NCBI RefSeq assembly: GCF_044324785.1
Contig: NZ_CP172127.1
Reading direction: 5' to 3' (one strand)
DNA from: Escherichia coli
GTDB taxonomy: Bacteria; Pseudomonadota; Gammaproteobacteria; Enterobacterales; Enterobacteriaceae
Length of the DNA: 64,000 nucleotides
This document shows positions 40,640 through 44,364 of the stretch, piece after piece. The position numbers and the translations under genes are program-made. Every line of letters starts with the position of its first letter. The first letter of the stretch is position 1. The notes beneath the pieces are model-generated. The model had not been told where the DNA came from and ran no database searches. It worked only from the letters and a program-made list of their open reading frames with translations.

Positions 40640-43600
40640 ATGAGTAAACTTTTGGATCGCTTTCGCTACTTCAAACAAAAGGGCGAAACCTTTGCCGATG
40701 GTCACGGACAGGTGATGCATAGCAACCGCGACTGGGAGGACAGCTATCGCCAGCGTTGGCAGTTCGACAAAATCGTGCGTTCCACCCACGGTGTTAACTG
40801 TACAGGCTCCTGTAGCTGGAAAATCTACGTTAAAAATGGTCTGGTGACCTGGGAAATCCAACAGACCGACTACCCGCGCACTCGCCCTGACCTGCCCAAT
40901 CATGAACCTCGCGGCTGCCCGCGTGGCGCAAGTTACTCCTGGTATCTCTACAGCGCTAACCGTCTGAAATACCCGCTCATTCGTAAACGACTGATTGAAC
41001 TGTGGCGCGAAGCCCTCAAGCAACACAGCGATCCGGTACTGGCGTGGGCATCGATTATGAACGATCCGCAAAAGTGCCTGAGCTACAAACAAGTACGTGG
41101 ACGCGGCGGCTTTATCCGCTCTAACTGGCAGGAGCTAAATCAGCTGATTGCTGCCGCTAACGTCTGGACCATCAAAACTTACGGCCCGGATCGCGTTGCC
41201 GGTTTCTCGCCGATCCCGGCGATGTCGATGGTTTCTTACGCCGCCGGAACACGTTATCTGTCGCTGTTAGGTGGCACCTGTTTAAGTTTCTATGACTGGT
41301 ATTGCGACCTGCCGCCTGCCTCGCCGATGACCTGGGGCGAGCAAACCGACGTGCCAGAATCTGCCGACTGGTATAACTCCAGCTACATCATCGCCTGGGG
41401 GTCTAACGTACCGCAGACACGTACGCCGGACGCCCACTTCTTTACCGAAGTACGCTACAAAGGCACTAAAACCATCGCCATTACCCCTGACTACTCTGAA
41501 GTGGCCAAATTGTGCGACCAGTGGCTGGCACCGAAACAAGGCACTGATAGCGCCCTGGCGATGGCAATGGGCCATGTGATTTTAAAAGAGTTTCATCTCG
41601 ATAATCCCAGCGACTATTTTATCAACTACTGCCGCCGCTACAGCGACATGCCGATGCTGGTAATGCTGGAACCTCGCGACGATGGTAGCTACGTTCCCGG
41701 GCGCATGATCCGCGCGTCTGACCTGGTAGATGGACTGGGCGAAAGCAACAATCCGCAGTGGAAAACCGTGGCAGTTAATACAGCAGGTGAACTGGTGGTG
41801 CCGAACGGTTCGATTGGTTTTCGCTGGGGAGAAAAAGGCAAATGGAATCTGGAATCCATTGCCGCCGGTACGGAAACCGAATTGTCGTTAACTCTGCTCG
41901 GTCAACATGATGCCGTTGCAGGCGTGGCCTTCCCCTACTTTGGCGGCATTGAAAATCCGCATTTTCGCAGCGTAAAACACAATCCGGTCCTGGTGCGCCA
42001 ATTGCCCGTTAAAAACCTGACATTAGCCGATGGTAACACCTGTCCGGTCGTCAGCGTTTATGATTTAGTACTGGCGAATTATGGCCTCGATCGCGGGCTG
42101 GAAGATGAAAACAGCGCGAAAGATTACGCTGAAATCAAACCGTACACCCCAGCCTGGGGTGAGCAAATTACCGGCGTGCCGCGCCAGTATATTGAAACCA
42201 TCGCCCGTGAATTTGCCGATACCGCCCATAAAACGCATGGGCGCTCGATGATTATCCTCGGTGCTGGCGTCAACCATTGGTATCACATGGACATGAACTA
42301 CCGTGGGATGATCAACATGCTGATCTTCTGCGGTTGTGTCGGGCAAAGCGGTGGCGGCTGGGCACACTATGTCGGTCAGGAAAAACTGCGCCCGCAAACC
42401 GGCTGGTTGCCGCTGGCCTTTGCGCTCGACTGGAACCGCCCACCGCGCCAGATGAACAGCACCTCGTTTTTCTACAATCATTCCAGCCAATGGCGCTATG
42501 AAAAAGTCTCTGCTCAGGAGTTACTTTCACCGCTCGCCGATGCCAGTAAGTACAGCGGTCATCTGATTGATTTCAACGTTCGCGCCGAACGTATGGGCTG
42601 GCTACCTTCTGCGCCGCAGCTGGGGCGTAACCCGCTCGGGATTAAAGCTGAAGCCGACAAGGCCGGATTATCCCCCACAGAATTTACCGCCCAGGCGCTG
42701 AAATCGGGCGATTTACGCATGGCCTGCGAACAACCAGATAGCGGCAGCAATCATCCGCGTAATTTGTTTGTCTGGCGTTCTAACCTGCTTGGCTCCTCCG
42801 GCAAAGGCCACGAGTATATGCAGAAGTATCTGCTGGGAACCGAAAGTGGGATTCAGGGTGAGGAACTCGGTGCCAGCGACGGGATCAAACCAGAAGAAGT
42901 CGAGTGGCAAACTGCGGCGATTGAAGGCAAGCTCGACCTGCTGGTGACGCTCGACTTCCGTATGTCCAGTACCTGCCTGTTCTCCGATATCGTTCTGCCC
43001 ACCGCCACCTGGTACGAAAAAGACGATATGAACACCTCGGATATGCATCCGTTTATTCATCCGCTTTCTGCGGCGGTCGATCCGGCGTGGGAATCACGCA
43101 GCGACTGGGAAATCTACAAAGGTATCGCCAAAGCATTTTCGCAAGTGTGCGTGGGCCATCTTGGCAAAGAAACCGACGTGGTATTACAACCACTGCTGCA
43201 TGACTCTCCGGCAGAACTCTCCCAGCCGTGTGAAGTGCTCGACTGGCGCAAAGGCGAATGCGATCTGATCCCGGGTAAAACCGCGCCCAATATTGTAGCG
43301 GTGGAACGCGACTACCCTGCTACCTATGAACGCTTTACCTCGCTCGGGCCATTGATGGACAAACTTGGCAACGGCGGTAAAGGGATTTCGTGGAATACCC
43401 AGGATGAAATCGATTTCCTCGGCAAACTCAACTACACCAAGCGTGAAGGCCCGGCACAGGGGCGTCCGCTGATTGACACCGCCATTGACGCATCAGAAGT
43501 GATTCTGGCGCTGGCACCGGAAACCAACGGTCATGTTGCAGTCAAAGCGTGGCAGGCGCTGGGCGAGATCACCGGACGCGAACATACCCATCTGGCGCTG

Positions 43601-44364
43601 CACAAAGAGGACGAAAAGATTCGCTGCAGCCACGTAAAATTATCTCCAGCCCCACATGGTCTGGTCTGGAAAGCGATCACGTCTCCTATAACGCGGGATA
43701 CACCAACGTTCATGAGTTAATTCCGTGGCGCACGCTGTCGGGACGCCAGCAGCTTTATCAGGATCATCCGTGGATGCGTGCCTTTGGTGAAAGCCTGGTG
43801 GCTTATCGCCCGCCTATCGACACCCGTAGCGTCAGTGAAATGCGCCAGATACCGCCAAACGGCTTCCCAGAAAAAGCACTTAACTTCCTGACGCCGCATC
43901 AGAAATGGGGCATTCACTCAACCTACAGTGAAAACCTGCTAATGCTGACGCTCTCTCGCGGTGGACCGATTGTCTGGATTAGCGAAACCGATGCCCGTGA
44001 ACTGACCATTGTCGATAACGACTGGGTGGAAGTGTTTAACGCCAACGGCGCGCTGACTGCCCGCGCGGTGGTCAGCCAACGTGTACCGCCGGGTATGACC
44101 ATGATGTATCACGCCCAGGAACGCATTATGAATATTCCTGGTTCGGAAGTAACTGGCATGCGCGGCGGCATTCATAACTCGGTCACCCGCGTTTGTCCGA
44201 AACCAACGCATATGATTGGCGGTTACGCGCAGCTGGCCTGGGGCTTTAACTACTACGGCACCGTCGGCTCGAACCGCGACGAATTCATCATGATCCGCAA
44301 GATGAAGAACGTTAACTGGCTGGATGATGAAGGTCGCGATCAGGTACAGGAGGCGAAAAAATGA
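40640..44364 (+). pseudogene. narZ: Respiratory nitrate reductase Z alpha subunit, disrupted by a small out-of-frame deletion near 43630
   Basis: Two overlapping track ORFs in different frames (40517..43720 and 43549..44364) together match NarZ/NarG; the match jumps from ...HKEDEKIR to QPRKIISSPTWSGLE with about 6 residues missing; total length 3725 nt is not a multiple of 3. Confidence 0.8.

Follow-up and report, generated by a model that had tools for sequence, protein, structure and literature searches.

The window, a 64,000-nucleotide stretch of Escherichia coli DNA (contig NZ_CP172127.1), is an ordinary segment of the E. coli chromosome that runs from pqqL-gadBC-dosCP-ddp via fdnGHI and the nar genes to Rhs/VgrG. 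Its closest matches among the RefSeq complete genomes, with N3, 7CC, PCN033 and 042 among them, are about 98-99% identical to it from end to end. The nar genes have the usual order of the second nitrate reductase locus of E. coli, the same as in N3 and Z1323HEC0462. Four of them are intact and of reference length, as the original prediction had claimed: narU, for the nitrate/nitrite transporter (39157..40545, 462 aa), narY, for the beta subunit (44361..45905, 514 aa), narW, for the assembly chaperone (45905..46600, 231 aa), and narV, for the gamma subunit (46597..47277, 226 aa), all on the plus strand. When the reference genes were compared one by one with the window by BLAST, narZ alone had a gap, and none was seen in narU (a gap-free match of 1389 nt to N3 narU), narY, narW, narV or yddE (47357-48250). 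The exact NarU protein of the window is found in public collections under that name, and the exact NarY protein is present on at least 1000 public contigs.

The remaining gene of the locus, narZ (40640..44364, plus strand), encodes the catalytic alpha subunit of nitrate reductase Z (NRZ) and is a pseudogene in the window. Its assignment as the orthologue of narZ, and not of narG, follows from the synteny narU-narZ-narY-narW-narV beside yddE and from its near-identity to annotated narZ; the matching RefSeq genomes all annotate the gene as narZ, with narZ-annotated features matched in at least 5,400 RefSeq records. The nearest relatives and E. coli K-12 MG1655 share the locus and its synteny (yddG, a porin gene, LRR genes, narU-narZ-narY-narW-narV and yddE), and the intact narZ allele of the relatives is 97.4% identical to that of K-12.

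Several other features of the window deserve mention. The fdnG gene (30567-33614, minus strand) appears as two ORFs of 803 and 195 aa with an in-frame TGA between them; we considered it as a second pseudogene and rejected this, the split being the normal selenocysteine TGA. An accessory cluster between ddpF and osmC (17535-24280) encodes a LysR regulator, CoA-transferase A/B, an acetyl-CoA acetyltransferase, a 3-hydroxyacyl-CoA dehydrogenase, a GntP permease and a 3-hydroxybutyrate dehydrogenase, and positions 1-25000 of the window are covered to at least 80% in only 229 of 5,425 genomes. A copy of IS1397 (IS3 family) lies between yddE and nhoA at 48251-49780, at the same site as in about 1,700 E. 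coli genomes; its orfA and orfB have the usual -1 overlapping arrangement and are seemingly intact. Further on, the ISAs1-family transposase gene ydcC (52214-53287, minus strand) is open for 357 aa only, and its N3 copy carries the annotation of a pseudogene with an internal stop. Two Rhs elements are located downstream of the VgrG gene, both on the minus strand. The first (54068-57973) is a pseudogene with ORFs of 673 and 607 aa, and the annotation of N3 gives its copy there as frameshifted and as containing an internal stop; the second (58781-63043) is an intact ORF of 1420 aa in the window, with an N3 copy annotated as frameshifted.

The narZ gene is split into two overlapping ORFs in different frames. 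ORF 1 (40517..43720) contains the native ATG at 40640, ORF 2 (43549..44364) is in the -1 frame relative to ORF 1, and the two overlap by 172 nt. Alignment with intact narZ, the check suggested in the original prediction, showed the missing bases directly: a single gap of exactly 16 nt, with no further indel across the gene, giving a length from the native start of 3725 nt in the window vs. 3741 nt in the intact gene. The same gap was obtained with all of the intact references used (E. coli N3, Z1323HEC0462 and three near-identical relatives). By base-by-base comparison, the missing 16 nt are TTCGCGATATTCAGGC, corresponding to narZ nt 2987-3002, and the junction falls at 43625|43626 (43625..43626, plus strand). 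The interval originally given for the lesion, 43549-43720, corresponds to the overlap between the ORFs, with the lesion proper at the junction within it. The sequence around the deletion is non-repetitive and lies outside any homopolymer run, in agreement with the initial proposal of a deletion of about 16 bp, and not a homopolymer slip, that leaves the gene about 16 nt short. The indel is not a multiple of 3 and brings in a TAA at 43718-43720, 220 codons early, as expected of a frameshift pseudogene.

Translation from the native start (40640..43720, plus strand) yields a product of 1026 aa, where intact NarZ has 1246. The last native codon is 995 (CGC, Arg; ...HKEDEKIR) and codon 996 turns into TGC; from there, 31 out-of-frame residues (CSHVKLSPAPHGLVWKAITSPITRDTPTFMS; codons 996-1026, 43625..43720, plus strand, from the codon listing and translation) precede the TAA, and residues 996-1246 are absent. 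The original frame picks up again at Q1002 (QPRKIISSPTWSGLE), so that F996-A1001 (FRDIQA) are lost or disrupted, matching the six or so missing residues of the original prediction. The stranded C-terminal coding remnant, Q1002-K1246, occupies 43627..44364 (plus strand) in its original frame, with the PF01568 domain within it. Compared with narZ of the relatives and of K-12 MG1655, the window allele lacks nt 2987-3002 and has an ORF of 1026 codons where theirs has 1246.

The domain content of the truncated product was assessed with TIGR01580, the NCBIfam narG equivalog profile for the respiratory nitrate reductase alpha subunit, and with Pfam. The truncated ORF covers positions 1-1004 of the 1235 positions of TIGR01580, with 1005-1235 gone; it scores 1863.9 bits (2332 bits for an intact relative), above the curated whole-protein cut-off of 1084 bits. 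PF14710, PF00384 and PF28599 are present, and PF01568, the molybdopterin-dinucleotide-binding domain (domain IV), is absent from this ORF and found on the separate, out-of-frame fragment downstream. Within that fragment, a 196-aa sub-ORF (43774-44364), which gene callers call from an ATG at 43774, holds PF01568 and TIGR01580 positions 1052-1235. No single polypeptide from the window's narZ spans the full profile together with PF01568. In enzymes of the DMSO reductase family, this C-terminal domain contributes to keeping the Mo-bisMGD cofactor in place. A truncated alpha subunit without PF01568 would be unable to hold Mo-bisMGD, leaving NRZ inactive. Since the main ORF drops TIGR01580 positions 1005-1235 and the entire PF01568 domain, the sequence strongly suggests that the strain has no functional nitrate reductase Z.

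The age of the lesion can be judged from close relatives. An exact look-up of the window NarU protein led to four near-identical genomes, all with an intact 1246-aa NarZ, each differing from the window by 2-4 SNPs over 13.4 kb. In three of them (GCA_022374235.1, GCA_031299025.1 and GCA_053151395.1), narZ does not differ from that of the window at any of the 3725 retained bases. Only two substitutions over the 13.4 kb are private to the window with respect to all four relatives; these lie 111 nt apart, at 35046 and 35157, and both are synonymous, falling on third codon positions of the porin gene (34987-36087) beside yddG. The close relatives possess the 16 nt TTCGCGATATTCAGGC, as does practically every other E. 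coli, and the homologous residues are found in NarG. As judged from these comparisons, the deletion is derived and very recent, because the relatives are identical elsewhere in narZ, the 16 nt are near-universal and the corresponding residues are found in NarG. A Shigella-like decaying genome is not indicated, narZ being the sole recent lesion in 13.4 kb relative to the close relatives and the window aligning end to end.

A search of 5,426 complete E. coli genomes gave no instance of the deletion junction; apparent junction matches of 95-99% identity were rejected, as they turned out to be intact narZ alleles aligned as two pieces. The gene is covered to at least 80% in 5393 of the 5426 genomes, and its span is exactly 3741 nt in 59 of 60 records sampled across the whole ranking. 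The exception, EcPF16 (NZ_CP054224.1, 2574363-2574596), is another natural loss of narZ, in this case by a large deletion that has left a 234-nt remnant beside an Rhs gene. A literature search for natural narZ pseudogenes turned up nothing relevant. The simplest explanation, and by a good way the most probable one in our view, is that the narZ of the window is a spontaneous, lineage-private loss-of-function allele, an ordinary frameshift pseudogene and no new kind of feature. We propose that a spontaneous deletion of 16 nt hit narZ very recently in one E. coli lineage; the removal of nt 2987-3002 shifts the frame by -1 after Arg995 and leads through 31 wrong codons to the TAA.

Three other readings were weighed against this one. 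The first is that the loss was not random, either because this part of narZ is especially prone to deletion (a hotspot) or because loss of NRZ was positively selected in the niche of the lineage. It gains some weight from PEC422 (NZ_CM168005.1, from swine faeces; 1064-4793), an unrelated strain whose narZ likewise has a small out-of-frame deletion, is annotated as 'frameshifted', and lies among intact narU, narY, narW and narV. The PEC422 deletion removes 11 nt and not 16 (nt ~2990-3003, approximately window 43628-43640), is flanked by GCG/GCG microhomology and overlaps the same 16-nt patch; it occurred on a different narZ background (97% identical, 102 mismatches), and is therefore an independent event. 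Selection for loss would also fit with the minor part of NarZ in nitrate respiration and with the normal colonisation of the mouse gut by narZ single mutants (PMC7759655). These are, however, two events only, and with even a few dozen independent narZ indels among some 5,400 genomes, one chance overlap within about 27 nt of a 3741-nt gene would, by our estimate, be unsurprising. The ends of the window deletion have no microhomology. A scan of the site for direct repeats found none of at least 6 nt, only a TCGCGA palindrome, and the predicted DNA structure was no better than that of shuffled sequence (z = 0.79); a structural hotspot was rejected on these grounds. A non-random loss is further at odds with a deletion allele that is private to one contig family, and with the otherwise strong length conservation of narZ, which indicates purifying selection. 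Taken together, a non-random loss seems improbable. It is more doubtful still that the FRDIQA-coding patch (nt ~2985-3005) is a recurrent site of small deletions and that inactivation of NRZ, the stationary-phase nitrate reductase, has come under repeated selection in certain niches, host-associated or environmental.

A second reading is that the 16-nt gap arose as an error of sequencing or assembly and that the narZ of the strain is really intact. Frameshifts seen in a single assembly are frequently errors, and the junction occurs in no other complete E. coli genome. Against this, the exact 1026-aa product is recorded in a separately built assembly, the Logan short-read assembly of run ERR13187251, which thus carries the same allele. 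Its contig ERR13187251_162 (15,344 nt) matches window 33003-48346 at 100% identity, with the same deletion, and is reported in 3 samples, not necessarily independent isolates. The run may derive from the very isolate that gave the window, in which case the match would rule out an assembler artefact and would not count as independent biological replication. The end of the contig, at 48346, coincides with the start of a 1.5-kb segment carrying IS1397. A non-repetitive 16-nt gap away from any homopolymer is, in addition, untypical of Illumina or nanopore error. Because the Logan contig is identical to the window over such a length (15.3 kb), we consider an assembly artefact very unlikely. This read-based assembly is a partial answer to the resequencing of the region that had originally been suggested as a check.

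The third reading accepts the deletion and supposes that narZ still gives an active enzyme, either through ribosomal -1 frameshifting or through a split alpha subunit made from N- and C-terminal fragments. The two frames do overlap by 172 nt, translation could start downstream (at a GTG at 43549, or at the ATG at 43774, which has a weak AGGA 10 nt upstream) and the stranded fragment has a complete PF01568 domain. The overlap contains no slippery heptamer of the X XXY YYZ type in any frame, however, and no significant local structure (z = 0.79, the fold being no better than shuffles); programmed -1 frameshifting or other recoding was rejected for this reason and because the ORF is uninterrupted in the relatives. 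Any product would still lack FRDIQA, which is invariant between NarZ and NarG, and residues 996-1050 would be wholly absent if translation of the second fragment began at 43774. In addition, a single ORF of 3741 nt is retained in every close relative and in about 99% of E. coli. The 271-aa downstream ORF starting at GTG 43549 was absent from the collection in an exact-sequence look-up. We therefore think it very unlikely that the allele is rescued.

If narZ is indeed a recent loss-of-function allele, the effects of the lesion may extend to the rest of the operon. The start of narY overlaps the native narZ stop (ATGA), and the premature stop lies about 640 nt upstream of narY. NarY, NarW and NarV, despite their intact genes, would probably be expressed at a lower level, owing to lost translational coupling and to Rho-dependent polarity; this expectation comes from the position of the native stop over the narY start and its displacement to 640 nt upstream. 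The intact state of narU, narY, narW and narV would itself be accounted for by a deletion too young for further decay to have occurred.

The paralogue of NarZ, NarG, is the alpha subunit of nitrate reductase A (structures 1Q16 and 1R27) and matches NarZ in length and in the order of its domains. The two proteins do not differ over the segment EDEKIRFRDIQAQPRKIISSPTWSGLE, with FRDIQA and its flanks shared. Unlike NarZ, NarG is the major, anaerobically nitrate-induced enzyme and is encoded elsewhere (narGHJI); narGHJI and the periplasmic nap system, if present in this strain, lie outside the window. NarG has been described as the major nitrate reductase and NarZ as contributing little to nitrate respiration, with no anaerobic induction (PMC7759655). 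In the mouse gut, a narZ single mutant colonises normally and loss of narZ worsens the defect of a narG mutant; in Salmonella, narZ has a role in starvation-stress tolerance and virulence (PMC7759655). Since NRZ is the minor nitrate reductase, a mild or subtle phenotype is to be expected of the strain.

The deletion is an instance of the loss of a well-known, dispensable paralogue and opens no new biological question. For annotation and phenotype prediction, it is best to treat the strain and the few samples that share its allele as NRZ-negative and to mark their narZ as a pseudogene. The allele can be used as a clean marker of the lineage, and the strain would constitute a naturally occurring narZ knockout, with wild-type relatives that are otherwise isogenic to it.
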